IMG/VR virus record: IMGVR_UViG_3300024518_000012
DNA length: 40,523 bases
Strand: one strand, 5' to 3'
Origin: a virus
Shown: piece by piece, positions 5,183-36,598 of the stretch
How positions within the stretch are numbered: the first letter of the stretch is position 1
Layout: each line of letters starts with the position of its first letter
Position numbers and translations under genes: made by a program
Notes under the pieces: model-generated
Seen by the model: only the letters and a program-made list of their open reading frames with translations
What the model was told of the DNA's origin: nothing
The model's database searches: none

Positions 5183-5264
5183 ACGCTACAGACGCAAGGT
5201 GGGCCGGGGTGGGGATAGTCTCCATCCTGGTCCCAAATACCACCCACCAGTAACGGAGGACCCT

Positions 5265-6022: not shown

Positions 6023-6025
6023 GCC

Positions 6026-8380: not shown

Positions 8381-8382
8381 CC

Positions 8383-8754: not shown

Positions 8755-8757
8755 CCT

Positions 8758-16100: not shown

Positions 16101-17105
16101 GCGGATCCTATCCCGGCCTTCGGGGACGCCTGGCAGTTCACGGTCACACACGAGGACTCCTCGGGAACCTTCGACAACGGGGAGGTGGTGGGGTCCGCGT
16201 TCTTCTCGGGGAACAGTGTGGGGGGCGGAGGTGGCTCCCCAGCCCATCCTGGGTCCGACGGGGACATCCAGTGGTCCACCGGGGTGGGTGGGGCCACGGA
16301 CTCCGAGGCGGCCTTCAACTATGACGACACGGCGAACACGCTCCTCGTCGGTACGGTGACCGCCGAGGCCATCACCAATGAGGGCCCACTCTTGACCGTG
16401 GGCGATGGCGTGGACGAGGATCTAAAGATCAACTTCGACAGGCAGGCCTCCGGTGGTGACCCGTTCGTGGCGTGGAATGAGACGAACGACAATCTGGAGA
16501 TAGACGTGGGTTCGGCCGTCCAAGACAACTTTGTTTACAATCTCGACATACTCCTCCCCCACCATGGCGCGGTCCAGGTCTACTCCGGGGGGGCGAGGGG
16601 TGGAACGATCCGGCCCATGGTCCGGATGATCGCGGAGGGGGCCACGGAGGCCCTGGCAAATCCCCCATGGTTGGAATTCGACAACACCAACGGCACAGGG
16701 AATGAAGTCTGGAACATGCGGCCCGAGAACTCTGACCAGTTCGTCCTCTACGAGGGGACTGCCGGGGATGCCGTGGCCTTCGACACCGGGGAGGACGCTG
16801 CACTATTCGAGATGGCCATGGCCTCGAAGGCGGCCCAGGCCCTGTCCGAGCCTGACACCACCCCCAGCATCAAGGGCGGGAACGTGTTCACGGTCCCGGC
16901 GAGCTCCTCGGACTTCATCACCGACCTGGACGATTACGCCACCAGTGGGTCTCAGCCGGTGTGGCTGATCTTCCTGGGTGGCTCCGCCACGGTAGACTGT
17001 AACGGTCCGACCATCTATTGCAACGGTGGGGGGACCTACAGCCCAGCGGCGAATGATTCCATGCAATGCGTCGAGGCCTCGGATATCTGGTATTGTCACT
17101 ATTGA
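13113..17105 (+). CDS. 1330-aa beta-helix (pectate-lyase-3-like) tailspike/fibre-like protein with a Sec-type N-terminal signal peptide
   Basis: GTG start lies 7 nt after GGAGG, with a GTGA overlap. N-terminus is MKQILTLLALVSLLGPAMA|QQ. The segment HDLRAYGAIPDDATTDAAAIQRAF...GGTIVAAGGEYEL is typical of the start of a depolymerase beta-helix. Poly-Gly linkers and a ...ILTVDQQGRLTAI fibre-repeat-like motif are present. Confidence 0.7.
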   Translation: MKQILTLLALVSLLGPAMAQQPIESITFEFPVAGLTTCDPHTQRNKQHFTDLWQITCDRSTSVWAVVGDRHDLRAYGAIPDDATTDAAAIQRAFVGAAGGGTIVAAGGEYELDATVQATLATAEDLPGVRLECSGTLGSTFTWTGAADGIMFQPTVALGTKSYNLTVEGCKFQTDAATHGVTAWDLSSVGNARFVRNTFEEVEIGLYLLSSITQAVTGAYLSENTFLGDGNDCAADGGDNDECDTGIYLGRFNDGADIVDTLADGLDIGIHNYRANRTRIMGGTVQNNDDGILVDNDGVALTAVDVSIVRVHQSLNTNGVHIVDSRRTAVIGPDMDVLVDCDETVCVPIINPGGVTGLADRVPYTDGFGDTLTDSSLGFDDAADTLLAEKILLDNGGSVPQIQTGGGNWSSSTISSNPGGISTLTNFVAGTTDGQSVGFNLGVSDTDDPADPLFNFPRAKFFLTDNTSSSGVFGLWGTGAINIPAFEVGIGLNRFLRIEPGGEVTLDDYPDCGVISSDGSGQLLCGSPLLNGAVNETVDLDVTVDTGDVLATIEADLGGDLTFYFGGVTYTLDCTPVTTNCQITLTEGTDTSPTLNYLYVTEAAGVLTFTSSTSDWPATSHAPIATALIQTDASVTANGAYKVHAWTDHVSTSTENGHLSHLNRKFRTQHATWDSGTAANTLTISNPDAWIDTDAGEVYQLHLHDMPALDMAVAPFFVVNEPGTPFMEADSLADITQDASSVTWGNNKYGNLVVVGVVSEDAGDSQGLINLPTSTYTLESDALIDAEATSVYTIPADFVGTGFLIARYTVRKTVSGWTQSGIDDLRGDTPSTAPGSGGGGGWIVSDGPNSQTISPGEILDFVGQTDVMDTLVSVPGNTRVLISLKDTAVTPAEYATPILTVDQQGRLTAIEDGGSQFSLRWEFTSDDSSTCTGVTGVPGRFDYNSATVSSVTLICYNHDMENGADVGGVLETFGDTDTIVLQQIDDPTKWAVFKITADPIPAFGDAWQFTVTHEDSSGTFDNGEVVGSAFFSGNSVGGGGGSPAHPGSDGDIQWSTGVGGATDSEAAFNYDDTANTLLVGTVTAEAITNEGPLLTVGDGVDEDLKINFDRQASGGDPFVAWNETNDNLEIDVGSAVQDNFVYNLDILLPHHGAVQVYSGGARGGTIRPMVRMIAEGATEALANPPWLEFDNTNGTGNEVWNMRPENSDQFVLYEGTAGDAVAFDTGEDAALFEMAMASKAAQALSEPDTTPSIKGGNVFTVPASSSDFITDLDDYATSGSQPVWLIFLGGSATVDCNGPTIYCNGGGTYSPAANDSMQCVEASDIWYCHY

Positions 17106-17116
17106 GGGGGTGACCG

Positions 17117-17515
17117 GTGAGAGCTCTAGCCACTGCGATGGTCTGCTTGCTGGCTGTCACGTGTGTGATGGCCGAGCCCGCCAAAATCGTGATTGTCCAC
17201 CCGGACGTGGACAAGCACGATCCATTCGAGGATCCACCGGGCCACCTGAACCTCGGGACGGATCCCCTTACACAGGAGGCAATCGACGGACTCCTGGACG
17301 GAACCTTCTGGAAGGTACGATATCGTAGGTCAACCGCACCCTACCAGGATGCCTCTCTTAACCTGAAGGAATGCGGAACGGCCGTCTATAGGATCTGTTC
17401 GGACTTCGACCAGACGGAGACCCTTGGGTCGGTGGCCAGGTTCCGTGGATCTGGGTGTGAGGGGGTCTGCTCTCCGATCAAGTTCAAGGTCAGGGTCAAG
17501 GAGGCCACCCCGTGA
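17117..17515 (+). CDS. Secreted hypothetical protein (132 aa)
   Basis: GTG start follows GAGGGGGTGA. Signal peptide is MRALATAMVCLLAVTCVMA|EP. Confidence 0.6.
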   Translation: MRALATAMVCLLAVTCVMAEPAKIVIVHPDVDKHDPFEDPPGHLNLGTDPLTQEAIDGLLDGTFWKVRYRRSTAPYQDASLNLKECGTAVYRICSDFDQTETLGSVARFRGSGCEGVCSPIKFKVRVKEATP

Positions 17516-17829
17516 ACGACAGGAGAGACCAGAACCTATTTCTATTGGTCGGCCTGATCCTCCTGGTCCTCCTGGTCTCCTGCCAGGCCGAGGCCCCTGG
17601 TCCAGATGAGGCCCTCTGCCCCTGCCCCCACTTCCCGGAGATCATGGTCCCCTGTCATGAGGGGTTTGACGACTGCCCGGACGGGAGTGGCGGGGACCCC
17701 TGTACCTGCCCTGACGGGACGGTGATCGACTGCGATCTGTTCCATTGCCCCTGTCCCGTCTGCCCTACCTGCCCAGAGGGCCCCACATTCGAGCAGGGGC
17801 CCCAGGGGTCCCAGGAGAGTGACCAATGA
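17512..17829 (+). CDS. Cys/Pro-rich lipoprotein (o-spanin candidate, 105 aa)
   Basis: GTGA overlap and RBS AAGGAGG. The hydrophobic leader ends in the lipobox L-V-S-C. The mature part carries CPCP / CTCP / CPCPVCPTCP motifs. Confidence 0.6.
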   Translation: MNDRRDQNLFLLVGLILLVLLVSCQAEAPGPDEALCPCPHFPEIMVPCHEGFDDCPDGSGGDPCTCPDGTVIDCDLFHCPCPVCPTCPEGPTFEQGPQGSQESDQ

Positions 17830-18011
17830 AAAGATTCCTTAGAAAACGGCTGACCACCCTCGTCCTTACCGGGATCGCGGTCCCGTTCCTCCAGAAGTGG
17901 GGAGTCCCGGAGGACACGATCCAGTGGCTGATCGGGGCGGTGGGAGCTTGGATGATCTCCCAGGGCTGGTCCGACGGGAAGGCCATCGAGAACGGGAACA
18001 AAAAGGACTGA
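17826..18011 (+). CDS. Holin-like small membrane protein (61 aa)
   Basis: ATGA overlap. Two hydrophobic segments (LTTLVLTGIAVPFL, WLIGAVGAWMISQGW) and a charged C-terminal tail (NGNKKD). Confidence 0.5.
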   Translation: MKRFLRKRLTTLVLTGIAVPFLQKWGVPEDTIQWLIGAVGAWMISQGWSDGKAIENGNKKD

Positions 18012-18015
18012 AGCC

Positions 18016-18261
18016 ATGGCGAACCAGGGAGTAGACTCTGGGATCCTCCATAAGGCCTCTCTCCTGGCCGTGGGTGGCCTGGCTTGTTTCCTGGCCCTCC
18101 AGGTATGGCTCCAGCATGGAGAGATCGTAGCCCTCCACGAGAGGGTCCTGGTCCGGAAGGAAATCCAGGAGGAGATCCAGAAGGCCATCAAGGCCGAGGG
18201 GGAGTCCATCCGGGAACTGATCCGGACCATTCACTCCGGGGCCGCCCCGACAGGAGGCTGA
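18016..18261 (+). CDS. N-terminally anchored coiled-coil protein (i-spanin or antiholin candidate, 81 aa)
   Basis: One TM segment (ASLLAVGGLACFLALQVWL) followed by a charged helical region. Confidence 0.45.
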   Translation: MANQGVDSGILHKASLLAVGGLACFLALQVWLQHGEIVALHERVLVRKEIQEEIQKAIKAEGESIRELIRTIHSGAAPTGG

Positions 18262-18263
18262 CC

Positions 18264-18566
18264 ATGGAAAGACCGGCCCCTCCAGAAAACATCGTTGTAC
18301 TATGGCTGGCCATCGGGTTACTGGTGGCCTTCGGTGTTGTCACCGTGGCGGGAATCGTCCAGGCTGGTGTGGGTGGCGGGACATGCTCCTACAAGCTCCA
18401 TGTAGCCACGGCCTCCATGGCCCTGGCGGTCCATCGTATCGGGCCAGACAACCAGGACGAGGGGGCCAGGGACGCCGCCAGGGCCCTCCAGGTGGGTCTG
18501 GGGGAGTCCGGGCTGGAGTGTCGCTGGATCGAGGGGGCGGCCCCTCCTGAGTTCGCCTGCCGCTAG
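18264..18566 (+). CDS. Membrane-anchored hypothetical protein (100 aa)
   Basis: ATG lies 6 nt after CAGGAGG. TM segment is IVVLWLAIGLLVAFGVVTVAGIV. The start is trimmed from track ORF 18084..18566. Confidence 0.55.
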   Translation: MERPAPPENIVVLWLAIGLLVAFGVVTVAGIVQAGVGGGTCSYKLHVATASMALAVHRIGPDNQDEGARDAARALQVGLGESGLECRWIEGAAPPEFACR

Positions 18567-18793
18567 AGGACCGGGGCTCCGTCCGGCCGGACGTGTCGGA
18601 AGAAAACGACCGAATTGGTCCAGGTTCCGTCTGGCTTCCTGGCCATCCGGTGATGGTTCCCGAGGTCTCCCGACCTCCGCCGCCAGCCGTCCACCTCCAG
18701 GGCCGCCACAGCCTCCTCCATGGCCTCCTTGACGTCCTCCCGCCTGGTGTGCTCCGGAGGCCTACTGGCCCAGTCCGGCGGGAGAGAGACCAC
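18563..18793 (-). CDS. Hypothetical small protein, last gene of the leftward operon (76 aa, or 52 aa from ATG at 18721)
   Basis: Its stop shares the CTAG at 18563-18566 with the converging + gene. The alternative ATG at 18721 is preceded by AAGGAGGCC. Confidence 0.45.
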   Translation of the reverse strand: MVSLPPDWASRPPEHTRREDVKEAMEEAVAALEVDGWRRRSGDLGNHHRMARKPDGTWTNSVVFFRHVRPDGAPVL

Positions 18794-19085
18794 CTCCGTC
18801 TTGTTCTCGGCCGGCGGTGGTCCCGATGAGGTGCACCCCGTACCAGTCTGCCACGGCCTCCACGTCCAGGCCTCCCATCAACCTGGACATGGCGTCCGGG
18901 GAGATGTCCATCTCCAGGACGGTGGCCCGGCTGGTCCCGTCTGTGCCCCGGAGCTCCCACCTGTAGTCCGAGGTATGGCTGAGACGGATCCGACAGTGGC
19001 CCTCCTGGGCCTCGGACCACTCCGTGACCTTCCTGGTGTGATCGTAGTCTGGATCCTTGGGTCCCATTCGGCGTCGGCGGCCCAT
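18762..19085 (-). CDS. Hypothetical protein (107 aa)
   Basis: The ATG overlaps the upstream TGA by 1 nt (TGATG), indicating translational coupling. The start is trimmed from track ORF 18762..19112. Confidence 0.55.
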   Translation of the reverse strand: MGRRRRMGPKDPDYDHTRKVTEWSEAQEGHCRIRLSHTSDYRWELRGTDGTSRATVLEMDISPDAMSRLMGGLDVEAVADWYGVHLIGTTAGREQDGGGLSPAGLGQ

Positions 19086-19273
19086 CACTTGGCCACCTTT
19101 CGACGCCGCCACTTACGGACCAGGGCCCCGGGAAACATCTCGTGTAAGCCCCGGCGGTGTTTGCGGTCCACCTGGGCCAGGGTCATCCCCTCGGGGACGG
19201 TCCCCTGGATGGGCTGGAACCACTCCACCCCGTTCCGGGAGATCGTATACTTCAAGGTGTAGGTCTCTGTCAT
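19085..19273 (-). CDS. Hypothetical small basic-tailed protein (62 aa)
   Basis: Preceded by TAGGAGAAAGCC-ATG-ACA. The C-terminus is RKWRRRKVAK. Confidence 0.65.
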   Translation of the reverse strand: MTETYTLKYTISRNGVEWFQPIQGTVPEGMTLAQVDRKHRRGLHEMFPGALVRKWRRRKVAK

Positions 19274-19282
19274 GGCTTTCTC

Positions 19283-19534
19283 CTATCTGTAGGCCTGGAC
19301 GTGCTCCTCGTCCACGGCCATGGAACACTGAAGGCTCCCGTCCGCACGGGCCTCTCCGATCCTGGTCTCCTCGGGCCGGAGCCACAGGAAAACGGACTTG
19401 GGGGGCCAGTCCTCGAAGGCCACCCAAACGTGGTCCTGTGACAGGGCCGGGCCCTCATACTCCCCCGCCAGGATCCCCTGGGGGGTCCGGATCAGGACGG
19501 CCTCTCCTGGTTTGAATTGGGTTCTGGTGGTCAT
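19283..19534 (-). CDS. Hypothetical small protein (83 aa)
   Basis: The start is chosen at the conserved CAGAGAAAGCC-ATG-ACC context downstream of promoter PL2. Confidence 0.65.
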   Translation of the reverse strand: MTTRTQFKPGEAVLIRTPQGILAGEYEGPALSQDHVWVAFEDWPPKSVFLWLRPEETRIGEARADGSLQCSMAVDEEHVQAYR

Positions 19535-19569
19535 GGCTTTCTCTGCTTGTTCCCTGGTGTGATACCTAC

Positions 19570-19598
19570 AATATACACCCACGGCGGCCATCTGTCAA
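19570..19598 (-). promoter_or_regulatory. Leftward sigma70-type promoter PL2
   Basis: On the minus strand: TTGACA (19598-19593), 17-nt spacer, TATATT (19575-19570). It is preceded by CTGCAAT-N4-CC, as in PL1. Confidence 0.7.
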
Positions 19599-19612
19599 GG
19601 ATCCATTGCAGA

Positions 19613-19825
19613 TTAATCCGGCCTCCCCACGTCCCGGTGGTCCTCACAATAGGCCAACTGGTCGGCGGGCTCAGGGGCCTCGGCCTTCAGGGCCTCCAGT
19701 TGGGCCTCCAGGTCGTCCTGGTGCTCCCCGTGGAAGTCCGTCCCCCAGATCCCACTGTTCAGGGCGTCCTCGATCCGCTCCACCATGTCCTGGCGGCAGG
19801 CTTCACACTCGTAGGTCTTGGTCAT
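19613..19825 (-). CDS. Hypothetical small acidic CxxC protein (70 aa)
   Basis: The start context is GAGGAGAAAGCC-ATG-ACC. 19 of the 70 residues are Asp/Glu. The start is trimmed from track ORF 19613..19897. Confidence 0.65.
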   Translation of the reverse strand: MTKTYECEACRQDMVERIEDALNSGIWGTDFHGEHQDDLEAQLEALKAEAPEPADQLAYCEDHRDVGRPD

Positions 19826-19851
19826 GGCTTTCTCCTCTGTGTAGTATCGTA

Positions 19852-19881
19852 AAGATAGGTCCCACGGAGGAGGTCTGTCAA
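19852..19881 (-). promoter_or_regulatory. Leftward sigma70-type promoter PL1
   Basis: On the minus strand: TTGACA (19881-19876), then a 17/18-nt spacer to CTATCT/TATCTT (19858-19852). It is preceded by CTGCAATTAACCC. Confidence 0.6.
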
Positions 19882-19950: not shown

Positions 19951-20349
19951 ATGACCATCACAAAGGACCATGACCGGCTTAACGCCATCGTGAATGACGA
20001 GTTCCCCAAGGCCATCGAGGCTATGGTGGCGGCGGCCGAGACCCATCTCCGCAACGCCAATATAAAGAACAAGGCCGGAGCGGTCCTGGGCCTCCTATCT
20101 GAGGCCAGCCACCTGGGGCTCCATTTCAAGGCTGAGCACCTGTCCATCTCCCGGGTTCTCTCTTTCTACATGCTCCGATCCACGGCACCATTCTCCAGTC
20201 TCGTCACCGTGGAGATTATCCGGGGCTTCCATCTCCAGAACCCACCGCGGGGCCTTGGGCCCAGGCCGTACCCAACTGGTGGACGGGTAAACGTGCCTCG
20301 TGGGACCGCCGACTGGATGGATGCCCACGACCTGGGGCGAGTCGTGTGA
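19951..20349 (+). CDS. Hypothetical protein, first rightward gene (132 aa)
   Basis: ACC-ATG-ACC start lies 5 nt after GGGGGG. Codon bias is good. It is followed by an 11-bp hairpin. Confidence 0.6.
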   Translation: MTITKDHDRLNAIVNDEFPKAIEAMVAAAETHLRNANIKNKAGAVLGLLSEASHLGLHFKAEHLSISRVLSFYMLRSTAPFSSLVTVEIIRGFHLQNPPRGLGPRPYPTGGRVNVPRGTADWMDAHDLGRVV

Positions 20350-20382
20350 TCGCGGAGAGGGTGGAGAGTCCAGGTAAAGAAA

Positions 20383-20410
20383 CGGCCCCCTGGTTGACAC
20401 CAGGGGGCCG
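20383..20410 (+). terminator. Perfect 11-bp GC hairpin after gene 19951..20349
   Basis: CGGCCCCCTGG (20383-20393) pairs with CCAGGGGGCCG (20400-20410) across the loop TTGACA. There is no downstream T-tract on the + strand. An A-rich tract lies upstream, so on the minus strand the hairpin would be followed by a T-rich tract. Confidence 0.45.
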
Positions 20411-20693
20411 CCTCCTGTACCTTCCGAACTGCGATGAACGGACCGGACCGGGCCAGCGTACCATCCCCGGTCCTCTATTCGCAAGAGGAACACGGGTGTT
20501 TCAGTCTGGCCCCCACCCACCACTCTCCCAACAGGGAAACCCAGGGCCTTCGGGATGTCCTTCTGATCTGACCTTGACAGCGGTCAGGGCTGGGGGATGG
20601 ACTCCCCGGCCAGCCTCTCCCAAGTCGTAGCAGCTAACACCCCGGGAGGCAGGAAGGCAGACAGGGAGATCGGCCCCCTGGGTGAGTAGGACG

Positions 20694-20726
20694 CCCCCTC
20701 CTACGACAGGGGGAAGGTCTGTTTTC
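20694..20726 (+). terminator. Weak intrinsic-terminator-like hairpin upstream of PR1
   Basis: CCCCCT (20694-20699) pairs with AGGGGG (20708-20713), followed by AAGGTCTGTTTTC. Confidence 0.3.
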
Positions 20727-20777
20727 TGGTCGATTCCAGCCCGCCCCATCTTTCTCGGCCGAATCAGCAAAAAGGCC

Positions 20778-20806
20778 CTGCATCTCCTGTGGGGAGGGTC
20801 TATATT
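20778..20806 (+). promoter_or_regulatory. Early promoter PR1
   Basis: CTGCAT, 17-nt spacer, TATATT. An A-tract (GCAAAAAGG) lies upstream and GTGTCAGC downstream. Confidence 0.75.
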
Positions 20807-20843
20807 GGAGGTGTCAGCCAAAAAGAAACACAGGGAGAAAGCC

Positions 20844-22514
20844 ATGACCCAGATCACCGACAGCGACATGGACCACGCCGAAAGACTCGCCGAGGCATCA
20901 TTCTCAGAATGGGCCGAGGCCAACCCCCAACCCTGTGGGGACTGTGGCAAGTCCCACACCCCGGCCGAGCCCACCGCGGATAACGTCTACTTTTGCCGAG
21001 ACTGCGAAAATAAGGCAGACGCCGAGGATCTGGTCCTCCGTGGCTCCCCGATGGCCATGGTCACCGAGGACGGAGAGGCCCTGGACGAGATCACCCCCTC
21101 CGCCCAGGCTGGCCCCTTCGGAGATGACGAGGCCATGACGATCACCCCGGAGCAGGTCATGGCGGCCTCCCAGGAGGACAACCGTCCGGTGGTGGCAAAG
21201 ACCACCCGCCAGAAGGCCACCTACCTGGTCATCACCTGGGACCGGATCTCCAACGTGGCCATCCGGGCCAAGGTGGTGGACTCCAAGGGGATGAGACTGG
21301 CCGGTGAGTCCTTCGCCAGGACCCAGCGGTCCGGCGGGATGACCGTGATCGGTGGACGGAAAAAAGGGTTCTGGACCAGCCGTACCTCCAGCGGGACCGC
21401 GATTCACACCGTGTTCGCCATCCGGTTCATCGGGATCAACCAGAGCCAGGACGCCACCTCCGCCATGGAGCGGGCCCTGGCCGGTGGCTTCAGCCTGTCC
21501 CAGGTGGAGGCCATGTTCCTCTCCGAGAACCCCCAGCAGGCGGTGGATATGATCGAGGACCTGGACGACGAGCCCACCATGGCCGAGATGGCCGACCATG
21601 ACCTGGTGGAGGAGTCCACCGCCGACCTGACCGAGCGGGCCATCCGAGAGGCCGGGATGACCGAGGACCTCGGAGAGGCCGGACCCCCGGCGGACGTGGT
21701 CCCCTTCACCACGGCCCAGGCCGCCACCAAGGCCCCGGGAGCCCCGAGCGCCGAGGAGGCCGAGGAGGCCCTGAAGGCCAGGGACACCTTCAAGTTTCTC
21801 CGGACGATCCTCCCCCACACCTCCAGGGCCCTCCTGTACGGCCCCACGGCCACCGGAAAGACCCACCTGGCCATCGAGGTCGCGGAGTCCCTGGGGCTGG
21901 ACCTCTACATCGTGGCCATGACCGATCAGACCCCAATGGCCGAGCTCCGCGGTCACTACATCCCGACCGCCGGGGGAGCCTTTATCTTCCACGAGGGGGC
22001 AATACTCCGGGCCTTCCGGAGTGGCGGCCTCCTCCTGATTGACGAGATTGACGAGGCAGGGGCGGACGCCCTGGCCTTCATCTCCGCGGCCCTGAACGAC
22101 CCGAAGGTGGCCAAGATCACCCTCCCGACCGGGGATACGGTCCAGGCCCACCCGGACTTCCGCGTGATAGCGTGCATGAACGGCCAGCCAGGAGACCTCC
22201 ACCCGAGGCTGGCTAGCCGATTCCCGGCCACCCACCTCGTCCGAGAGCCTGACCCCCAGGCCTTCAAGGCCCTCCCCGAGGACCTCCGGACCGTGGCCAA
22301 GAAGCTCAGCAAGTCCACAGTCCCCCAGGACCAGCGGGTGGACCTCCGGTCCTGGTTCGAGTTCGCGGCCATGAGGGACAGCCTGGGCCACCAGGAACTG
22401 GCCGCCAGGGCGATCTTCGGGCCGGGGTGGTCGGACCTCGTGGCAGCCATCGCGGCGGCCAACGATGAGACGGCCCAGAGCAACACTGACAAGCAGGCCG
22501 CCGAGGGTGTGTGA
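20844..22514 (+). CDS. AAA+ ATPase (AAA_5 / MoxR / CobS-like) with a novel N-terminal half containing a zinc ribbon (556 aa)
   Basis: Walker A is LLYGPTATGKT and Walker B is LLLIDEIDE. Sensor-1-like VIACMN and RLASRF are present. The N-terminus carries CGDCGK...FCRDCENK. The start context is GGGAGAAAGCC-ATG-ACC, trimmed from track ORF 20682..22514. Confidence 0.8.
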   Translation: MTQITDSDMDHAERLAEASFSEWAEANPQPCGDCGKSHTPAEPTADNVYFCRDCENKADAEDLVLRGSPMAMVTEDGEALDEITPSAQAGPFGDDEAMTITPEQVMAASQEDNRPVVAKTTRQKATYLVITWDRISNVAIRAKVVDSKGMRLAGESFARTQRSGGMTVIGGRKKGFWTSRTSSGTAIHTVFAIRFIGINQSQDATSAMERALAGGFSLSQVEAMFLSENPQQAVDMIEDLDDEPTMAEMADHDLVEESTADLTERAIREAGMTEDLGEAGPPADVVPFTTAQAATKAPGAPSAEEAEEALKARDTFKFLRTILPHTSRALLYGPTATGKTHLAIEVAESLGLDLYIVAMTDQTPMAELRGHYIPTAGGAFIFHEGAILRAFRSGGLLLIDEIDEAGADALAFISAALNDPKVAKITLPTGDTVQAHPDFRVIACMNGQPGDLHPRLASRFPATHLVREPDPQAFKALPEDLRTVAKKLSKSTVPQDQRVDLRSWFEFAAMRDSLGHQELAARAIFGPGWSDLVAAIAAANDETAQSNTDKQAAEGV

Positions 22515-22560
22515 TCTCCTTCACACCCATGGCTGACACCTACACGGCGGCCAGTTGGAC

Positions 22561-22592
22561 GGAGGGGGCGGGGATGGCTTTCCGCCCCCTCC
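22561..22592 (+). terminator. Intrinsic terminator-like hairpin between the AAA+ and vWA genes
   Basis: GGAGGGGGCGG (22561-22571) pairs with CCGCCCCCTCC (22582-22592) across a 10-nt loop, followed by ACTTTGAT. Confidence 0.55.
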
Positions 22593-22621
22593 ACTTTGAT
22601 CGACGTCGAAGGAAAAAACTC

Positions 22622-22650
22622 TTGCATCGAGCATGTCCGGGATGTATATT
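22622..22650 (+). promoter_or_regulatory. Early promoter PR2
   Basis: TTGCAT, 17-nt spacer, TATATT. GGAAAAAACTC lies upstream and GTGTCAGC downstream. Confidence 0.8.
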
Positions 22651-22683
22651 CCGAGTGTCAGCAGATACCAAGGAGAAAGCCAA

Positions 22684-24687
22684 ATGAGAAAGCGCGGCCA
22701 GGTCAGAGACATCAAGGGTGAGGAGGTCCTCTACGAGAGAGGCCGGACCCGCTCCAAGCCCTTCGTCCAGGTCCTCGACGGCCGAGAGGCCACCGAGATC
22801 CTGGAAGGCCCGGAACAGCCCTACTCCACGGCCACCAGGGTGGTGGTGGACTTCTCGGACACCCCAGCCGGACGCCGCGGACGATCCCACGAATTCCACC
22901 ACCTGGCATACACCGATCACGACCAATGGGCCGTGGCCGTGGCCGCCGGGGTTCAGAACGATTGCCTCCAGAAGTGTGAGGACGTCCGGATCCAGACCCT
23001 GGCCAACCGGTCCGGGTTCAAGGGCTACGCCGAGGCCATCTACACCCCCGAGGAGTGGGCGGACCTGATCTCCAGGCGGATCACCCCCGACCGGATGGTA
23101 ATGTCCGCGGTAGCCCTCGGTGGGACGGCCGACCTGGTAGACGTCGAGGCGGCCATGGAGGCGGCCGGGATGGCTGACCACCTGAAGGCTGCCCGCCGAG
23201 CCCTGGCCCGGATCGACAGCCAGGCCACCGCCAACCTGACCACGGCCTACGCCGCCAAGGTGGCCGCCGACCTGGCCGCCGACCTGGCAGCCCTGGCCCC
23301 CAAGGTCCCGAGGATCGAGGAGGCCCTGGAGGCCGCCGGATTCGAGACCACCGAGGAGGAGTCCACGGACATCTCCATGGAGGCCACCAGCGACCTCCCG
23401 GAGGACGCCGACCTGGAGCCCACCGAGGAGCCCACCGAGGAGCCCACCGAGGAGCCCGAGGGCCGTCCGATGGTCCCGCCTCCGGCCGAGGAGCAGGACG
23501 ACCCCCAGGAGCCCACAGGCCAGCCCCAGATCGAGACGGACGAGAACCCGGACCAGGACGACCCGGACGGGTTCAGCGTGGCTGGAGACGCCTGGGGCCC
23601 GGATGAGGACCTCGGGGAGGCCACGGACGAACTGGACGAGGACGCCGACCTGGACCAGGACTCCCTGGCGATGGTCAGTGGTATGGGCTGGCAGCCCCAC
23701 GAGGTCCAGGCCTACCAGGTCCCCGAGGGCCTTCGGGGCCTGTTCGGATTCGAGCCCGAGGAGCTCGCCAGGGAGCGGGCCGCCGAGGCTGGGATCGACC
23801 GATTCGAGACCATGGCCACCGTCTCCAGCGAGGACGCCACAGAGGGGACCCTGGCCGCCTGGGACTGGGTCAATAAGACCGAGACCCCGGTGATACCCGA
23901 GCCAGGACAGGTGTGGTACCGCACCAACAGAGAGGCCATAGAGCGGGCCAGGGAGTCCTTCGAGGCCTTCAAGACCTCCAGGGCCCTGACCGAGATCCGG
24001 CGGACCAGAAAGCTCTCCATGGGCTGGGGCTATACCGTGATCCAGAGAGTCCCCCTCACCCGTAGCTGGCCGGGATCCTGGCGGCGGCCCAAGTTCAACC
24101 CCCAGGAGGTAGGGGCAATCCCTGGAGCGATCCACAGACTCCCCGTGGATCAGAAGATATTCACCGACACCAGGACCAAGTCGAAGGGCGGGACCCCGAC
24201 CATCCTGGTGGACGTCTCCGGGTCCATGTCCCTGAGTGTTGAACAGGTGTCAGCCATCTGTGAAGCACACCCCTACGCCACCGTGGCCACCTACTCCGGG
24301 GGCAATACCTCGGGTGCCATCGTGATAATTGCCAAGGGTGGCCGGGTGGCCGAGCAGTCCGCCATGGACCTGTCCCAGGGTGGGAATGGAATCGACGGTC
24401 CGGCCCTCCGGTGGCTGGGGTCCCAGCCTGGCCCCAGGATCTGGGTCTCGGATGGTCAGGTATTCGGCCGGATGTCTAGCGGCAGTCGGCGGGCTTACAA
24501 GCAGGTGGCCACCCTGAAGTCCCTGGCGGACTGTTGCGAGGCCACGATAGCCCAGGACAGCATCAAACACGTGGCCGAGCCCTGCCAGGTGACCACGTAT
24601 CTGGCGGCCTGCCAGAGGAAGGGGAAGACCTTCATCCGGGACTGGAAGCCAGCCGGTGGATTCTCGCCCAGTATCTCCAGGTGGTGA
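22684..24687 (+). CDS. vWA-domain protein (CobT / BchD-like partner of the AAA+ ATPase, 667 aa)
   Basis: The C-terminal domain has the MIDAS motif ILV-D-V-S-G-S-M (nt 24211-24228). A long acidic central linker includes the PTEE repeats. RBS is AAGGAGAAAGCC. Confidence 0.75.
   Translation: MRKRGQVRDIKGEEVLYERGRTRSKPFVQVLDGREATEILEGPEQPYSTATRVVVDFSDTPAGRRGRSHEFHHLAYTDHDQWAVAVAAGVQNDCLQKCEDVRIQTLANRSGFKGYAEAIYTPEEWADLISRRITPDRMVMSAVALGGTADLVDVEAAMEAAGMADHLKAARRALARIDSQATANLTTAYAAKVAADLAADLAALAPKVPRIEEALEAAGFETTEEESTDISMEATSDLPEDADLEPTEEPTEEPTEEPEGRPMVPPPAEEQDDPQEPTGQPQIETDENPDQDDPDGFSVAGDAWGPDEDLGEATDELDEDADLDQDSLAMVSGMGWQPHEVQAYQVPEGLRGLFGFEPEELARERAAEAGIDRFETMATVSSEDATEGTLAAWDWVNKTETPVIPEPGQVWYRTNREAIERARESFEAFKTSRALTEIRRTRKLSMGWGYTVIQRVPLTRSWPGSWRRPKFNPQEVGAIPGAIHRLPVDQKIFTDTRTKSKGGTPTILVDVSGSMSLSVEQVSAICEAHPYATVATYSGGNTSGAIVIIAKGGRVAEQSAMDLSQGGNGIDGPALRWLGSQPGPRIWVSDGQVFGRMSSGSRRAYKQVATLKSLADCCEATIAQDSIKHVAEPCQVTTYLAACQRKGKTFIRDWKPAGGFSPSISRW
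23416..23460 (+). repeat. 12-bp tandem repeat (GAGCCCACCGAG, 3 full copies plus 9 nt) encoding (EPTE)n
   Basis: Read directly from the sequence: 23416-23427, 23428-23439 and 23440-23451 are identical, with a partial copy at 23452-23460. Confidence 0.9.
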
Positions 24688-24830: not shown

Positions 24831-24859
24831 TTGCATCTGCCGCCACGGGAGTGTATATT
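24831..24859 (+). promoter_or_regulatory. Early promoter PR3
   Basis: TTGCAT, 17-nt spacer, TATATT. GAAAATAAACCC lies upstream and GTGTCAGC downstream. Confidence 0.8.
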
Positions 24860-24898
24860 CCCTGTGTCAGCAAAAAACAACAAGCAAGGAGAAAAGCC

Positions 24899-25492: not shown

Positions 25493-26392
25493 ATGACAGA
25501 CCAGACCCCAGAGCTCCAGCCAGGCTCCCCACCCATGGCCGTGGCCATTCGGATGTCCTCCGAGTTCACCGACGTGGTTAAGGCCATTGGCCTGGTCCAG
25601 GCCAAGGCCAAGAGCCTGAAGGAATCCGGAAAGGACAAGTTCCTGGACAGGAAGTATCCGACCCTCCAGGACTACCAGAATGCCCTCCGGCCCCTGTGGG
25701 GGGAGGCTGGCCTGACCGTGATCCAGGCCTGTGACCTGGTCCCCGGGACGGTCCGATCCGTGGCCCGCCACGTCAAGGTCAAGAAGGGCCGGGACACCAC
25801 CTACCGGGAGGTGACCCAGATCGTGGCCACCTACTCCATGACCACCCTGGTGGTCCTCGGGGATCAGTGGGTGGTCACCGAGACCTCCGCCGACACCGAG
25901 GACAACACGGATGCCCAGGCGGTGGGATCCGTCCAGACCTACCTGGGCCGGTATGCCCACCGGAGCCTCTGGCAACTGACCGGGTCGGCCGATGACGACG
26001 ACGGTTATGGAGCGGGGCGGACCAGGACCGGAGAGGATCGTCCTCCGGCCTCCACAGGGCCCCGGCCGTCCACGGGACCCGGGCCCAGCAAGCCCAGGAG
26101 GGAGACCAGGCCTGTCAACGAGACGGACGACAAAGGCCAGGCCGACCAGGGCAATAAGGAACAGGCCGACCGCCAGAGGTTCCTTGGTCGCCGGGCCAAG
26201 CTATCCAAGGCGGTGATGAACTTCTGCGAAGGGGACAAGGCGGCGGCGTCCCAGGTCCTCCTGGACATCTCCTCGGATGAGAGCTTCGAGGGGTTCAAGA
26301 GTGTGGCCCAGATCCAGAAGGACTATCAGGTGGAGGCCATGGCCAAGAGGTTTGTGGAACTGACCGGGCAGTCCCTGAGGCTGGACCTGTGA
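25493..26392 (+). CDS. erf: ERF-family single-strand annealing protein (299 aa)
   Basis: YPTLQDYQNALRPLWGEAGLTVIQ ... AQAVGSVQTYLGRYAHRSLWQLTGSADDDDG matches the ERF core pattern from memory. The C-terminal tail is disordered. The start context is AGGAGAAAGCC-ATG-ACA. Confidence 0.7.
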   Translation: MTDQTPELQPGSPPMAVAIRMSSEFTDVVKAIGLVQAKAKSLKESGKDKFLDRKYPTLQDYQNALRPLWGEAGLTVIQACDLVPGTVRSVARHVKVKKGRDTTYREVTQIVATYSMTTLVVLGDQWVVTETSADTEDNTDAQAVGSVQTYLGRYAHRSLWQLTGSADDDDGYGAGRTRTGEDRPPASTGPRPSTGPGPSKPRRETRPVNETDDKGQADQGNKEQADRQRFLGRRAKLSKAVMNFCEGDKAAASQVLLDISSDESFEGFKSVAQIQKDYQVEAMAKRFVELTGQSLRLDL

Positions 26393-26493: not shown

Positions 26494-26522
26494 TTGCACC
26501 AACGGCCGCCTGGACCTATATT
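26494..26522 (+). promoter_or_regulatory. Early promoter PR4
   Basis: TTGCAC, 17-nt spacer, TATATT, with GAGAAAAAAGCCC upstream. Confidence 0.75.
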
Positions 26523-26552
26523 TCCCGTGTAGGACAAACACAGGAGAAAGCC

Positions 26553-26790: not shown

Positions 26791-27162
26791 ATGACGGACT
26801 TCATCACCAGCGTTCCATTTATCACCGGGGCGGCCTTTGGTGTCGTCCTGGTCCTGATCCTCTCGGCCGTTATCGCCCGGCTGGAGAAGAGGACCACAAT
26901 CCACCACGTTGGAACCTGGGAGCCCATGACGGGGGCGTCCTACCCCGGGAAGAACCGGCCGGAGTCCATGGGTCACAACCTGACCACGGCCCAACTGGAG
27001 GACCTGGTGGACGACCTGGCCCGGATGGGTGGGGCGGACCGCCGGAGCCCTGACCGGACGGACCTGGACCATGTCTGGGACGATTGCTCACACTGCGGCC
27101 GGAGATTCTGCTCCACCTGTTCCGGCGGACTTCACGAGGACCTGTGTCCCGATTGCCAATGA
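26791..27162 (+). CDS. Membrane-anchored protein with a C-terminal zinc ribbon (123 aa)
   Basis: N-terminal TM segment is FITGAAFGVVLVLILSAVIA. The C-terminus is CSHCGRRFCSTCSGGLHEDLCPDC. Confidence 0.65.
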   Translation: MTDFITSVPFITGAAFGVVLVLILSAVIARLEKRTTIHHVGTWEPMTGASYPGKNRPESMGHNLTTAQLEDLVDDLARMGGADRRSPDRTDLDHVWDDCSHCGRRFCSTCSGGLHEDLCPDCQ

Positions 27163-27179
27163 TGAGGAGACCCCCAGCC

Positions 27180-27728
27180 ATGAGAACGAAGATATGCCAC
27201 CCAATCACCGGGGAGCCGCCACCCCGAGGATATGACAGCCTGAACCTGATCCGGATCGGAGGCTCCACCGGGAAGGTGGGGTCCTTCGGGATGACCCGGA
27301 ACAGTGGCCAGAAGGCCCACAAGGGGGTGGACTACCTGTGTATCCCGGGGCGTCCCGTGTTCTGTCCCATGGACGGGACGGTGGCCAGGGCCGGGTTTCA
27401 GGATCCGTCCGACCCGTGTCGGGGCCACGGCCTCCGGGTCTACATCAAACACGAGACCGAGGCCCACGGGCTCCTGGTCTCCTGTTTCTCCCACCTGTCC
27501 GCCCTGGAGATCCACCGGACCTTCGGGACTGAGCTCGTCCGTGGTCAGATCGTAGGCTGGACCGGACGGACCGGGAACGTCTCGGACAACGTCCCGAGTC
27601 ATCTACACTGGGAATTGTGGATGAGTCGGGAGGTCAACGGGACCCCGGTGGACCCCGAGAGGTTCATGGCCGAGGGGACCCTCCTGGGCATGGACGGTCG
27701 ATTCGTCATCCCGGACGAGGTGGCGTGA
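27180..27728 (+). CDS. Peptidase M23 (LytM-type) peptidoglycan endopeptidase, endolysin candidate (182 aa)
   Basis: Motifs HKGVDY ... PVFCPMDGTV ... GLRVYIKH ... FSHL ... GQIVGWTGRTG ... SHLHWEL. ATG lies 10 nt after GAGGAG. An alternative ATGA-coupled start is at 27159. Confidence 0.85.
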   Translation: MRTKICHPITGEPPPRGYDSLNLIRIGGSTGKVGSFGMTRNSGQKAHKGVDYLCIPGRPVFCPMDGTVARAGFQDPSDPCRGHGLRVYIKHETEAHGLLVSCFSHLSALEIHRTFGTELVRGQIVGWTGRTGNVSDNVPSHLHWELWMSREVNGTPVDPERFMAEGTLLGMDGRFVIPDEVA

Positions 27729-28063: not shown

Positions 28064-28449
28064 TGGCTCCTCATACTTGCTGGATAGGTAGAAGCTACAG
28101 GACCCAGGCTGGGGGTGTTAGATGCCGGGTCTGTGGGGACGTGATCGTCCCGGCCGAGGACCTGGGGAAGGGTAAGGCCGAAAAGGAGAAAGGGATGGCC
28201 CTGGGCCGGAAGGCCAAGGCGTTCCTCCTCCACCAGGCCAGGAAGTATGCCACCGAGATCGCCAGGAGTCGGGGAGAGGTGACCGCCGACGATGTCCGGG
28301 CCGCCATGGCAGACGAGGGCCTCCCTGGTCTGGGGATGGCCGCCGGTTCCATCTTCAGGGGTCCCGAGTGGGTCCCCACCGGGGAGATGAAAACCTCGGC
28401 TGTAGTAGCAAACCACGCCAGAGAAATCAAAGTCTGGAGGCTCAAATAA
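28063..28449 (+). CDS. Hypothetical protein with an N-terminal CxxC-type ribbon (128 aa)
   Basis: TGATG overlap. An alternative start is at 28195 (MALGRK). Confidence 0.5.
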   Translation: MAPHTCWIGRSYRTQAGGVRCRVCGDVIVPAEDLGKGKAEKEKGMALGRKAKAFLLHQARKYATEIARSRGEVTADDVRAAMADEGLPGLGMAAGSIFRGPEWVPTGEMKTSAVVANHAREIKVWRLK

Positions 28450-29165
28450 TGCCCCATCCAACGTACTACGTAGGGGACAAAAAGCCCTCCAACAGAGTCC
28501 CGAGCGTGACCACCGTACTCCGGAACTGGGGGGACAAGGGTGGCCTGATCTACTGGGCCCACCAGCAGGGGGCCGAGGGGATCAGCCTACAAGAGGCCAG
28601 GGTCAAGGCTTGCGATGCCGGGACGGTGGCCCACTCCATGATCGAGCAGGACCTGAGGGGCCGAGTCCCCCGGGCTGAGCTTCCCGAGGACTACCGGGGA
28701 GACCCCGATGGGGAGGAGACAAAGGTTATCGTGGCGGCGGCCGAGGCAGGGTTCCGCGGGTTCCAGACATGGAAGTCAGGGCTGAGCCTGAGCTACCTGG
28801 AGACCGAGTTGTCCCTGGTCCACCCGGAACACCGCTATGGCGGGACAATCGACTGTGTGGCCCTGGTGGAATACATGGGCAAGGAGGCCCTGGCCATCCC
28901 GGACTGGAAGTGTGCCAATGGGACCTACCCGGAGCATGTCTACCAGTTGGCGGCCTACCGGGATCTGTGGGAGTACCACCACCCGGACAAGCCGGTGGAA
29001 TACTGTTTCTCCTGCCGATTCGGGAAGCCCGGAGAGGGCCACAGTGGTGGGGACTTCCACCAGCATGGGTTCACCAGGGAGCAGATGGATATAGCCCTGG
29101 ACGCCTTCCTGGCCATCCTGAAGGCCTATAAACTGGAGGCCGCGGTCAAAAGGTGGGTTCGATGA
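28449..29165 (+). CDS. PD-(D/E)XK nuclease (RecB/Cas4-like exonuclease fold, 238 aa)
   Basis: TAATG overlap. Motifs GGTID (D), IPDWK (D-x-K) and YQLAAY (Q..Y). It lies in the same operon as the ERF annealing protein. Confidence 0.65.
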   Translation: MPHPTYYVGDKKPSNRVPSVTTVLRNWGDKGGLIYWAHQQGAEGISLQEARVKACDAGTVAHSMIEQDLRGRVPRAELPEDYRGDPDGEETKVIVAAAEAGFRGFQTWKSGLSLSYLETELSLVHPEHRYGGTIDCVALVEYMGKEALAIPDWKCANGTYPEHVYQLAAYRDLWEYHHPDKPVEYCFSCRFGKPGEGHSGGDFHQHGFTREQMDIALDAFLAILKAYKLEAAVKRWVR

Positions 29166-29911
29166 AAGCCTCCACCCTCTACAAGATCGAGAACGGCCTG
29201 GAGCGAATCGGGGACGGGTTCAGGGCCATGGCCAGGGCCATCCGGGAGGAGGCCAAGGGCCAGGAAGCCCTGGAGCAGGAGATCACCGCCAGCATGGCCA
29301 GGGGGTCCCGTGGATTTGGGCCGAGCCCCCTGGTCAAGGCCTGGTCCGACAGGAAGGCGGAGAGGGAGGCCGAGGAGGCTGGCCAACGGGTGGCGGAGAT
29401 CATGACCAAGGACCTGGCCGAGGCCTCCAAGGCCCAGAAGGTCACGGCTTGGACCAAGGCCTGGATCGAGAGGTTCCCCAGGTGGTGGGCCTTCTACCCC
29501 AGGAAAGAGAAGAAACGGCGGGCCGAGGCTTTCTGGGTCAAGCTGGGGACCAGGCTCCGCCGCCTGGGCCTGAACGAGCCCGAGGCCTTCGAGGCTGTCC
29601 TGTGGCTGACCTTGTCCAGGGCCGCGGAGTGGAAGGTGGACGGCCGGGAGCGGAAAACCATCCCCCATCCCTCCTCGTTCATCAACTCCGAGGCCTTCGA
29701 GGACTACACCGCGGTGGCCAGGGGGGACACCCGGGCCAGCCTCTCCGAGAGTGCCGAGCCTGGGGCCGATGTCAGGACGACTCCCCAGGAGGGTACAATC
29801 GAGCGGGACGAGGACGAGGCCACGGCGGCCATGGCCCTCGGGATGACCCCGGATGAGTTCTCGGAGTACCGGATCAAGGCCCTTGCCGACAGGGCCAGGA
29901 GGACACCATGA
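29162..29911 (+). CDS. Hypothetical early protein, possible replication-module protein (249 aa)
   Basis: ATGA overlap. The motif W-x-F-YPRK-x-KK-x-x-AE-x-x-W ... IPHPSSFIN-x-E-x-FED resembles a motif I recall from phage replication-region proteins. The family name is not certain. Confidence 0.4.
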   Translation: MKASTLYKIENGLERIGDGFRAMARAIREEAKGQEALEQEITASMARGSRGFGPSPLVKAWSDRKAEREAEEAGQRVAEIMTKDLAEASKAQKVTAWTKAWIERFPRWWAFYPRKEKKRRAEAFWVKLGTRLRRLGLNEPEAFEAVLWLTLSRAAEWKVDGRERKTIPHPSSFINSEAFEDYTAVARGDTRASLSESAEPGADVRTTPQEGTIERDEDEATAAMALGMTPDEFSEYRIKALADRARRTP

Positions 29912-30626: not shown

Positions 30627-31274
30627 ATGAAGTCCGGAGGAGGAAGGGCCAGAGCCAGCGCCAAATTGGGCCGCGGCCTTGGGAGGCGGCCGGAGGATTA
30701 CCTCCCCATCCGGCCGCCAACCCAGAACGTGGATGCCCCCATGAGGGGGAGCCTGGACGAGAGGGTGGCCAAGGCCAAGGAGGCCCGGGCCACCCACACA
30801 AGCGACCCCGGCGGAGAGGTCAACTATGGTCACCTGGGGTTCAAGTCAAAGCCCCCCGAGATCGAGGCCACCACCACCACCACCTGGGCCAAGGCCTCCG
30901 TGGGCCTGGTCCGAAAGATCAGACTCTACGGGAAGGCTAGAGCCCTCCAGCATGAGATAGACCACCCCCAGATCCCGGAGGGCCACCCGGATCATGGAGA
31001 CTGGTGCCGGACCGTTGTGGCCATCGTGGGAGGCTATCCCCTCCCGAAGGTGGGAAATCGTGCGGACGTTCAATATCCGAGGCCTGCCCCTGCCGGACAG
31101 GAAGCTCAGCCCGAACAACAAGACAAAAATGGTCCACTGGGGAACGAGGGCCAAGCTGGTCCGGGATCACAGGGAGACCGTGGCCACCCTGACCATGGCC
31201 CAGCTACCGGTGGAGGCCAGGGCGGCCAAGATCGAGAGGGCCCTGGTCCAGATGATCGTCTACCACCCCAGTGA
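30627..31274 (+). CDS. Hypothetical protein whose last ~70 codons overlap rusA out of frame (215 aa as drawn)
   Basis: Third-position GC is high from 30627 to about 31055 and collapses afterwards. The stop is only reached at 31272-31274. Confidence 0.45.
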   Translation: MKSGGGRARASAKLGRGLGRRPEDYLPIRPPTQNVDAPMRGSLDERVAKAKEARATHTSDPGGEVNYGHLGFKSKPPEIEATTTTTWAKASVGLVRKIRLYGKARALQHEIDHPQIPEGHPDHGDWCRTVVAIVGGYPLPKVGNRADVQYPRPAPAGQEAQPEQQDKNGPLGNEGQAGPGSQGDRGHPDHGPATGGGQGGQDREGPGPDDRLPPQ

Positions 31275-36594: not shown

Positions 36595-36598
36595 ACCC

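Follow-up and report, generated by a model that had tools for sequence, protein, structure and literature searches.

Adjacent genes for a MoxR-class ATPase and a CobT-like vWA partner in a metagenomic phage genome, a candidate ATP-driven machine of early infection

We analysed two adjacent genes of the IMG/VR virus record IMGVR_UViG_3300024518_000012, a stretch of 40,523 nucleotides referred to here as the window, and found that they encode an ATPase of the MoxR class (gene A, 556 aa) and a CobT-like partner ending in a von Willebrand factor A (vWA) domain (gene B, 667 aa; Table 1). This identity is secure, and the pair is a divergent variant of an already described, functionally uncharacterized viral module, in line with the original prediction, which had been made from the sequence alone and named a MoxR-class ATPase and vWA pair of experimentally unknown role. 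Beyond identity, we propose with a probability of roughly 55 % that genes A and B form a self-contained, ATP-driven AAA+/vWA machine that would act early in infection, a divergent representative of the 'CobS/CobT-like' (MoxR plus metallopeptidase-vWA) modules of viruses. Together the two genes occupy 3675 of the 40,523 bases (9.1 %, originally estimated at ∼9 %).

Gene A begins at an ATG behind a ribosome-binding region, GGGAGAAAGCC, and comprises an orphan N-terminal extension, an AAA_5 module and a C-terminal helical lid. Its assignment to the AAA_5 type, first made from the motifs GPTATGKT, LLLIDEIDE and IACMN, was borne out: the open reading frame (ORF) is present, the codon-position GC map supports it, and residues 330-460 match Pfam AAA_5 at 62.5 bits against a cut-off of 22 (E-value 5.6e-17). 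In an alignment of gene A with its relatives, phage CobS-like proteins and genuine CobS, the G, G and K of Walker A, the E of Walker B, the sensor-1 N and the finger R are all invariant. Within the same alignment, Walker B of most family ATPases reads N-E (LVxNEI...) rather than the canonical D-E, the glutamate being invariant; D-E is kept by gene A (aa 396-404), its closest relative (P0002), genuine CobS and an Alteromonas phage ATPase. The closest solved sequence relatives are the AAA domains of midasin (1.6e-45 summed), followed by NorQ (3.5e-14) and CbbQ (3.5e-9), and the PHROG matches carry the labels 'ATPase' and 'porphyrin biosynthesis' (CobS-like; PHROG 249, E-value 3.4e-25). Similarity to genuine CobS was weak (25 % over 128 aa, E-value 2e-5), and gene A is closer to gp55 of Brevibacterium phage Cantare (27 % over 184 aa, E-value 3e-15). 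The Pfam Mg_chelatase model remained below threshold (15 bits versus 20.3), and PADLOC matches to IetA and RtcR, which were weak and covered only the P-loop region, were disregarded. On sequence grounds, membership of gene A in the MoxR class is therefore secure, given the above-threshold AAA_5 match, the intact motifs and the coupling to a vWA partner.

The N-terminal extension has three segments: first an acidic head, whose zinc ribbon (CxxC-16-CxxC) has its pairs at aa 31 and 51, next a beta-rich segment of basic character (aa ∼115-225), and last a linker that is again acidic (aa ∼226-300); both the ribbon and the acidic stretches had been noticed originally. The N-terminal ∼320 aa matched nothing in Pfam or PHROG and could not be aligned with the closest relatives (P0002-P0006), and BLAST and phmmer found no homologue of the extension, split or free-standing, in the window or in 104 other loci, i.e. 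all those fetched except the near-identical copies L023 and L024. The usual ATPase of the family is 230-260 aa long and does without it. By sequence comparison the extension is thus a lineage-specific orphan, acquired in this phage. As it is absent even from the closest relatives it cannot define the client of the family, a role that had been suggested for it, and is at most a local add-on.

Gene B is built from an N-terminal HExxH domain, an acidic, proline-rich linker, a helical neck and a vWA domain that carries a MIDAS, or metal ion-dependent adhesion site. Neither the whole protein nor its separated domains matched any Pfam, NCBIfam or PADLOC model, and this included DUF2201/DUF2201_N (putative metallopeptidase plus VWA-like), which we had expected. 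Likewise, none of 56 family members matched a Pfam model, peptidase and VWA families included, and tblastn of gene B and two typical members against 50,697 phage records returned nothing. Using a four-sequence profile from which the acidic linker had been removed, we were able to collect 25 family proteins, and an exhaustive hidden Markov model (HMM) search of 1.84 billion cluster representatives (clustered at 50 % identity) gave at least 2,860 at an E-value ≤ 1e-3, with 1,525 at ≤ 1e-30. Most matches were 400-500 aa long and aligned end to end. They share an N-terminal block, R-x-H-E-x-x-H-x-x-x-[TS]-P with Q-x-x-E-[DE]-x-R ∼26 residues further on, and a C-terminal block of TVLID-x-SGSM, GGN-x-IDGPALRWL and PRIWVSDG.

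The full-length structure model of gene B was confident over aa 40-205 and 450-650 and disordered over aa 223-356 (predicted local distance difference test, pLDDT, below 50). Over aa 500-600 the pLDDT was ∼85-93, and the top Foldseek matches in the PDB were all vWA domains (E-values 5e-3 to 0.1, probability up to 0.85), led by NorD of the NorQD complex (9qhe_G; E-value 4.8e-3, probability 0.82) and followed by TFIIH p44/Ssl1 and Rpn10. When the family was compared by hhalign with an alignment of five genuine CobT proteins, the two vWA domains matched at a probability of 85 % (E-value 5.8e-6), with IDGxAL and SDG in register. The MIDAS residues of the DVSGSM motif (aa 510-515) are joined by N568 and D571 (GNGIDGPAL) and D590 (WVSDG), and all six positions are invariant in 80/80 viral relatives among the matches listed. 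The vWA domain read from DVSGSM and placed behind an (EPTE)n linker in the original prediction is accordingly supported by fold, by the CobT alignment and by the invariant MIDAS. We regard it as secure, from alignment and model together, that gene B ends in a vWA domain whose MIDAS is complete; its nearest match is NorD by fold and the vWA domain of CobT by sequence. The linker itself, LEPTEEPTEEPTEEPEG, has an isoelectric point of 4.05 and is mostly gaps in other family members, an expansion relative to the typical 400-500 aa which, like the ATPase extension, is peculiar to this phage; it lends gene B more CobT/BchD likeness than those relatives have.

The N-domain was modelled from a 43-sequence alignment (pLDDT 85.6, predicted template-modelling score 0.80). 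In this model H69-E70-x-x-H73 lies on a helix (aa 61-76) and E99/D100 on a later one (aa 92-109), which is the zincin arrangement of an HExxH helix with a predicted third-ligand glutamate downstream. H69, E70 and H73 are invariant in the family alignment A8, and among the viral loci listed the residues are kept as follows: H in 63/68, E in 61/68, H in 64/68, the downstream E in 65/69 and R in 69/69. Foldseek against BFVD retrieved phage proteins, matched over their N-terminal parts, whose annotations read 'Cobalt chelatase CobT subunit', 'VWFA domain containing protein' and 'CobT VWA domain containing protein' (best E-value 5.6e-4; nine at probability 0.95-1.0; query TM-score 0.47-0.56), with the VWFA protein of halovirus HCTV-2 lower in the list (probability 0.35) and entries named 'Metallopeptidase domain' and 'Lethal factor' matching weakly (E-values 1.4 and 0.7). 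This region, formerly described as unplaced and novel, is hence a conserved HExxH domain whose predicted fold matches phage CobT and VWFA N-domains, and the claim of novelty for the partner is weakened by that match. A metallopeptidase-vWA gene beside MoxR has been published for phages (PMC7824862), as have viral cobST clusters (PMC8651126). Judging from alignments and model, the N-domain is conserved, bears a metal-binding signature like that of zincins and is common to phage CobT-like proteins.

A neighbourhood survey, which the original prediction had proposed, was run on viral contigs. A pattern scan of IMG/VR gave at least 80 confirmed loci, and all counts of loci given here are among the matches listed. 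With an HMM of the family ATPase, the ATPase gene was found immediately upstream of the partner, on the same strand, in 72/72 of the loci having upstream DNA, and linkage of the two was seen in 7 other contigs as well. A word-indexed search with gene A found only six relatives, and on each of these contigs a large gene B homologue comes after the ATPase, sometimes with a small ORF between. Of all the proteins in the window only those of genes A and B have homologues in the 80 viral loci; as only the cassette proteins are in common, the cassette is the conserved unit, with no third component travelling across lineages. Downstream of the pair, about 60/80 loci carry a single-strand annealing protein (SSAP; phrog_3290) and an exonuclease (phrog_284), as seen within the dominant IMG/VR lineage, both unrelated to the Erf and the phrog_298 exonuclease of the window, and two further loci (L006 and L013) carry PDDEXK and AAA_24 genes. 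Since the recombination genes are non-orthologous between lineages, their association with the pair recurs independently. Four relatives (L008-L011) have terminase or structural genes immediately downstream of the cassette. A related AAA_5 gene is located between the helicase and primase genes of Alteromonas phages, and another near DnaB, ThyX and MazG in Cantare.

Three relatives deserve separate mention. In L012 (1480-2697, 7270-8226) the cassette is flanked by a second, Pfam-recognizable vWA protein (VWA_3), a SNIPE/T5orf172 nuclease and a RuvB-like AAA protein. Relatives of the cassette on L004 and L005 (GCA_036447315.1, GCA_044232495.1) lie on 6.7-6.8-kb contigs binned into metagenome-assembled genomes named 'Dehalococcoidia bacterium'; this binning, which may be an artefact, is the only host hint for the phage group.

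Among isolated phages, Cantare gp55 (AAA_5, annotated 'porphyrin biosynthesis') is followed by gp56 (581 aa), which has an N-terminal NYHELCH...LEDQRIE and a C-terminal VWA_2 match of 24.0 bits, under the 27-bit cut-off. Motifs of this type also occur in CobT-like proteins of Gordonia phages, where gp56 homologues annotated 'CobT-like cobalamin biosynthesis protein' or 'von Willebrand factor protein' each come after an AAA ATPase gene. These actinophage pairs (Cantare gp55/gp56, Schomber gp70/gp71, GMA6 orf61/orf62) share with genes A and B the order of ATPase then partner and the AAA_5 type of the ATPase. In the known viral pairs, too, the partner starts with an HExxH...ED-x-R domain and ends with a vWA/MIDAS domain, the linker between them being variable, and the genes are placed in early, replication or accessory regions. 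They differ in that the sequence similarity is beyond the reach of tblastn, in that Pfam VWA_2 weakly detects the Cantare protein and not the gene B family, and in the 320-aa orphan extension that sets the window ATPase apart from the minimal family type. An AAA_5 gene followed, in a virus, by a gene for an HExxH N-domain and a vWA domain is the layout of the viral MoxR plus metallopeptidase-vWA, or 'CobS-CobT-like', module; genes A and B have it, as do Cantare, Schomber and GMA6. Three other neighbours of AAA_5 genes were rejected as relatives: those in Alteromonas phage PT11-V19 and Acinetobacter phage Ab15 fall outside the gene B family, and that in Listeria phage LP-010 is a DUF7192 protein.

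To obtain genuine CobT for comparison, a CobT N-terminal sequence served solely as bait in a search of a plasmid collection, where it matched annotated cobT genes, each adjoining cobS. The likeness extends to gene order (cobS, then cobT), to the succession of N-domain, acidic middle region and vWA domain, and to the vWA motifs D-x-SGSM, IDGxAL and SDG. In contrast, the N-domains of the family and of the five genuine CobT proteins showed no significant similarity by hhalign (E-value 0.03, probability 1.6 %), genuine CobT reads HDxxxH...P...E-x-A-R-x-E at the place of HExxH, and the window has no CobN-like ORF, the two ORFs above 1300 aa being without a Pfam match and within the tail block. Gene B is not supported as a bona fide CobT: there is no Pfam or NCBIfam CobT match, and only the vWA part is significantly similar to the five proteins. 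A match of the N-terminal regions to cobaltochelatase domains had been named originally as a result that would speak against the prediction; for gene B, such a match exists to phage 'CobT-like' proteins and is not significant to genuine CobT.

BchI/BchD is a further system of an AAA+ motor and a partner, the latter with an acidic, proline-rich linker ahead of an integrin-I/vWA domain with a MIDAS. Genes A and B resemble it in motor, linker and vWA/MIDAS domain, whereas the N-domain of BchD is an AAA-like module and not an HExxH domain. Among solved single-domain ATPases, NorQ and CbbQ come closest to gene A, and NorD is the best structural match of gene B; NorD and CbbO, however, are without an HExxH N-domain, and their clients (cNOR and Rubisco) are known and often encoded nearby, whereas the cassette in the window encodes no client. 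NorQ/NorD is also a two-gene system with a vWA domain after a linker that is remodelled by the ATPase, and the cryo-electron microscopy report on NorQD, the best template for a mechanism, describes a vWA finger entering the ATPase pore and a ring that twists and stretches the NorD linker (PMC13036017).

The claim that each gene has its own promoter agrees with the promoter-like elements we found upstream of both. TATATT-N4-GTGTCAGC occurs in exact copies upstream of 20844, 22684 and 24899, each with (C/T)TGCAT 17 nt before it and GGAGAAAGCC after it, and with up to 3 mismatches there are 6 matches versus 0.54 expected. Related copies stand ahead of 26553 and of two divergent minus-strand genes, and in the distant relatives L001 and L004 this element is likewise present ahead of the ATPase genes. 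A scan for the strict sigma-70 consensus listed two related minus-strand elements and not the three on the plus strand, because (C/T)TGCAT fits TTGACA at only 2-3 of 6 positions. The elements of the pair are of the same type as those of the neighbouring early recombination genes. Taken as a whole, the promoter/leader cassette precedes at least six early genes on both strands and reads A-rich tract, (C/T)TGCAT or TTGACA, 17-18 nt, TAT(A/C)TT, N4, GTGTCAGC and GGAGAAAGCC-ATGAC; owing to this ending, many early proteins start with M-T.

Two statements on the position of the pair required correction. Strictly, gene A does not specify the first early product, as it is preceded on the same strand by a 132-aa gene and a 494-nt non-coding stretch (20350-20843) that separates the two. 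Furthermore, the description of a phage without replication enzymes holds in that no polymerase, helicase or primase was found in the window, but the pair is followed by genes for a helix-turn-helix protein, Erf, an M23 peptidase, the phrog_298 exonuclease, a replication-initiation-like protein and RusA, and with DNA-metabolism genes just downstream it does not stand in place of a missing replication module.

In the machine that we propose, and by analogy with NorQ/NorD, CbbQ/CbbO and CobS/CobT, a hexamer of the ATPase would dock onto the vWA domain of gene B, ATP hydrolysis would pull or twist the linker of the partner, and the vWA/MIDAS site would hold either an acidic residue of the client or the motor. 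The HExxH domain would bind a metal and most likely cleave the client, or else metallate or remodel it. Acting early in infection, such a machine would have its target encoded elsewhere than in the cassette, and since nothing else is common to the window and its relatives from other lineages, the client is probably a host protein or a widely conserved phage/host complex. The position of the pair at the head of the early region, beside SSAP and exonuclease modules that are non-orthologous between lineages, points to a role linked with host takeover or DNA metabolism rather than with cobalamin synthesis or tail assembly.

Several observations weigh against this interpretation. We infer the interaction of A with B, the formation of hexamers and the early timing by analogy, and our literature search found no experimental study of any viral member of the module. 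The company of recombination genes may reflect shared early expression only. Foldseek of the N-domain model against the PDB gave nothing significant (best E-value 2.2), so that a zincin fold was not supported, and the N-domain profile hit only ADAMTS-1 (E-value 2) among PDB sequences. With no PDB fold, and no Pfam peptidase model in 56 members, the peptidase reading rests on a short motif and weak BFVD matches, and membership in a peptidase family is not established, as the motif is present while fold and family model are lacking. Among the loci listed, ∼12 % of the relatives (8/68 aligned) have lost at least one HExxH residue; these loci (L031, L033, L042, L043, L055, L056, L065 and L086; e.g. 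RHQLGR, MLQLGH and RTELAH) keep a perfect MIDAS, which indicates that catalysis is not universally required, and ∼7 others (L078, L085, L087, L096, L101, L103 and L106) have an unrelated N-terminus. From the HDxxxH of genuine CobT, moreover, the domain is evidently able to work without a canonical zincin site. A separate observation on the same motif is that L006, from the same clade as the window, reads HEMAR.

A more specific and distinctly less probable version, which we put forward tentatively, is that viral 'cobST' genes including this pair are not cobalamin genes but a very widespread, ATP-driven, two-component zinc metalloprotease, which phages would fire at the start of infection so as to cleave or take apart a conserved host target. 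Here the AAA_5 ring would be the motor in trans and the HExxH-vWA protein both adaptor and blade, with targets such as a host replication, recombination or defence protein, and the orphan zinc-ribbon extension might add a lineage-specific targeting or regulatory input. Readings of the pair as a non-proteolytic remodeller, an assembly chaperone or a chelatase rank below the machine proposed above.

The first of these, close to the idea of the original prediction, takes HExxH as a metal-stabilized adaptor site and has the ATPase remodel or load DNA-metabolism proteins of host or phage. It would fit the recurrence of SSAP and exonuclease neighbours of different families, the related AAA_5 genes near helicase and primase or near DnaB, ThyX and MazG, the persistence of degenerate HExxH variants with an intact MIDAS, and the zinc ribbon and basic segment of the ATPase extension. 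We nevertheless consider it unlikely: searches of genes A and B revealed no domain of the DNA-binding, helicase, primase or loader kind, H, E and H, being nearly invariant in ∼90 % of members, speak for a functional metal site, and the neighbourhood may be a matter of expression timing.

A part in virion assembly, as chaperone plus processing protease, appears about equally improbable. It has been proposed for the pair of MoxR and metallopeptidase-vWA that occurs in jumbo phages of group 2.2 (Iyer et al., 2021, Viruses 13:63; PMC7824862) and has an archaeal-virus precedent in the MoxR p618/vWA p892 pair of Acidianus two-tailed virus (PMC7159879), and the four loci with the cassette just upstream of terminase or structural genes would suit it. 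The window pair, however, lies ∼10 kb upstream of the putative terminase ORF, is separated from the tail genes by a divergent promoter region, and has the promoter and leader type of the Erf-region genes; an exonuclease and SSAP come after the pair in most listed relatives, and replication or nucleotide-metabolism modules house it in actinophages and haloviruses, the AAA plus vWA pairs of the latter lying in the replication or accessory region (PMC7911831). In Bacillus phage 0305phi8-36, deletion of MoxR-like, vWA-like and other genes left a viable phage of poorer growth (PMC3357382).

Least probable is an auxiliary metabolic role, published for the cobST clusters in tailed viruses of haloarchaea (Liu et al., 2021; PMC8651126), in which CobST of the virus would commandeer the host's CobN, giving a cobaltochelatase that raises the cobalamin supply during infection: the PHROG 249 label, the specifically CobT-like vWA domain, the N-domain fold shared with phage proteins annotated CobT and the CobT-like acidic linker speak for it, and against it stand the weak similarity to genuine CobS, the non-significant one to the CobT N-domain, the lack of any Pfam CobT or NCBIfam cobaltochelatase match in gene A or B, the canonical HExxH that the phage family keeps and genuine CobT lacks, the absence of CobN from the window, and the company of early recombination genes in unrelated lineages.

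The analysis defines a large, Pfam-invisible branch of the module, whose cassette is very frequent among uncultured phages, with the ATPase adjacent, the MIDAS invariant and a canonical HExxH in ∼90 % of members. Viral metagenomics routinely counts ATPase plus vWA pairs labelled 'CobS/CobT' as vitamin B12 auxiliary metabolic genes, and the present family is probably mislabelled as a vitamin B12 gene pair. Should the protease or remodeller reading be true, the B12 annotation of these viral genes would be wrong, and a common phage device for host takeover or DNA metabolism would be still uncharacterized. The minimal cassette, a 230-aa ATPase and a 400-aa partner, is compact and suits biochemical and structural study.

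Table 1. Features of the window, in order of position
Feature	Position	Strand	Basis or detail
Structural genes	29-18261	+	Codon-position GC map
Tail tube	4211-5182	+	
Block of small genes	18563-19825	-	
Further copies of promoter/leader element	19538-19598, 19826-19881	-	
Long early region	starts 19951	+	
132-aa gene	19951-20349	+	Upstream of gene A
Promoter-like element and leader of gene A	20778-20843	+	CTGCAT 20778-20783, 17-nt spacer, TATATT 20801-20806, GTGTCAGC 20811-20818
Gene A, ATPase	20844-22514	+	ORF, codon-position GC, Pfam AAA_5
N-terminal extension of gene A (aa 1-305)	20844-21758	+	Lineage-specific
Zinc ribbon of gene A (aa 31-54)	20934-21005	+	CxxC pairs
AAA_5 core of gene A (aa 330-460)	21831-22223	+	Walker A GPTATGKT, Walker B LLLIDEIDE, sensor-1 N (IACMN), arginine finger (RLASRF)
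Promoter-like element and leader of gene B	22622-22683	+	TTGCAT 22622-22627, 17-nt spacer, TATATT 22645-22650, GTGTCAGC 22655-22662, GGAGAAAGCC
Gene B, vWA partner	22684-24687	+	ORF, family search, structure model
N-domain of gene B (aa ∼35-205)	22786-23298	+	Alignments A6 and A8, domain model, Foldseek
R67-x-H69-E70-x-x-H73 of gene B	22882-22902	+	E99-D100-x-R102 on next long helix
Acidic, proline-rich, predicted-disordered linker with (EPTE)n	23299-23751	+	pLDDT, composition
vWA domain with MIDAS	24022-24633	+	Foldseek, hhalign, MIDAS conservation
D510-x-S512-x-S514 (in DVSGSM)	24211-24225	+	MIDAS
Further copies of promoter/leader element	24831-24898, 26494-26552	+	
Erf	25493-26392		Downstream of pair
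Exonuclease (phrog_298)	28368-29165		Downstream of pair
Replication-initiation/primosomal-like protein	29153-29911		phrog_9474, E-value 4.6e-9
RusA	30994-31560		Downstream of pair
Putative terminase ORF	35008-36594		Assigned from position and size only; Pfam gave no match
Mu-type portal	36518-39118		

The window holds an essentially complete phage genome, as near-identical contigs of 40,590 and 40,593 bp with different start points were found in two other metagenome assemblies, and by codon-position GC its gene map is clean throughout. Scans for tRNA genes and Rfam families gave no match in the window, and megablast found no DNA-level relatives among isolated phages. In the non-coding stretch ahead of gene A there is a 12-bp hairpin without mismatches (20383-20410), along with other inverted repeats rich in GC, the repeats other than this hairpin being short and chance-like, and relatives have a gap of ∼300 nt at the matching position; the stretch could be a terminator, a regulatory region or an origin. 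The M23 peptidase gene (27084-27728; Pfam E-value 1.8e-13) belongs to the early recombination region, with Erf on one side and the exonuclease on the other, and is distant from the structural genes and from any recognizable lysis cassette. In the tail region, the ORFs at 8758-13116 (1452 aa) and 13113-17105 (1330 aa) and a preceding 784-aa ORF had zero Pfam matches. Finally, a DUF5131 protein (phage Gp37/Gp68 family; E-value 1.6e-86) is encoded at 32780-33664 and is also present in the relative L001, with which the window shares, outside the pair, only three proteins: this one, Erf and the exonuclease.

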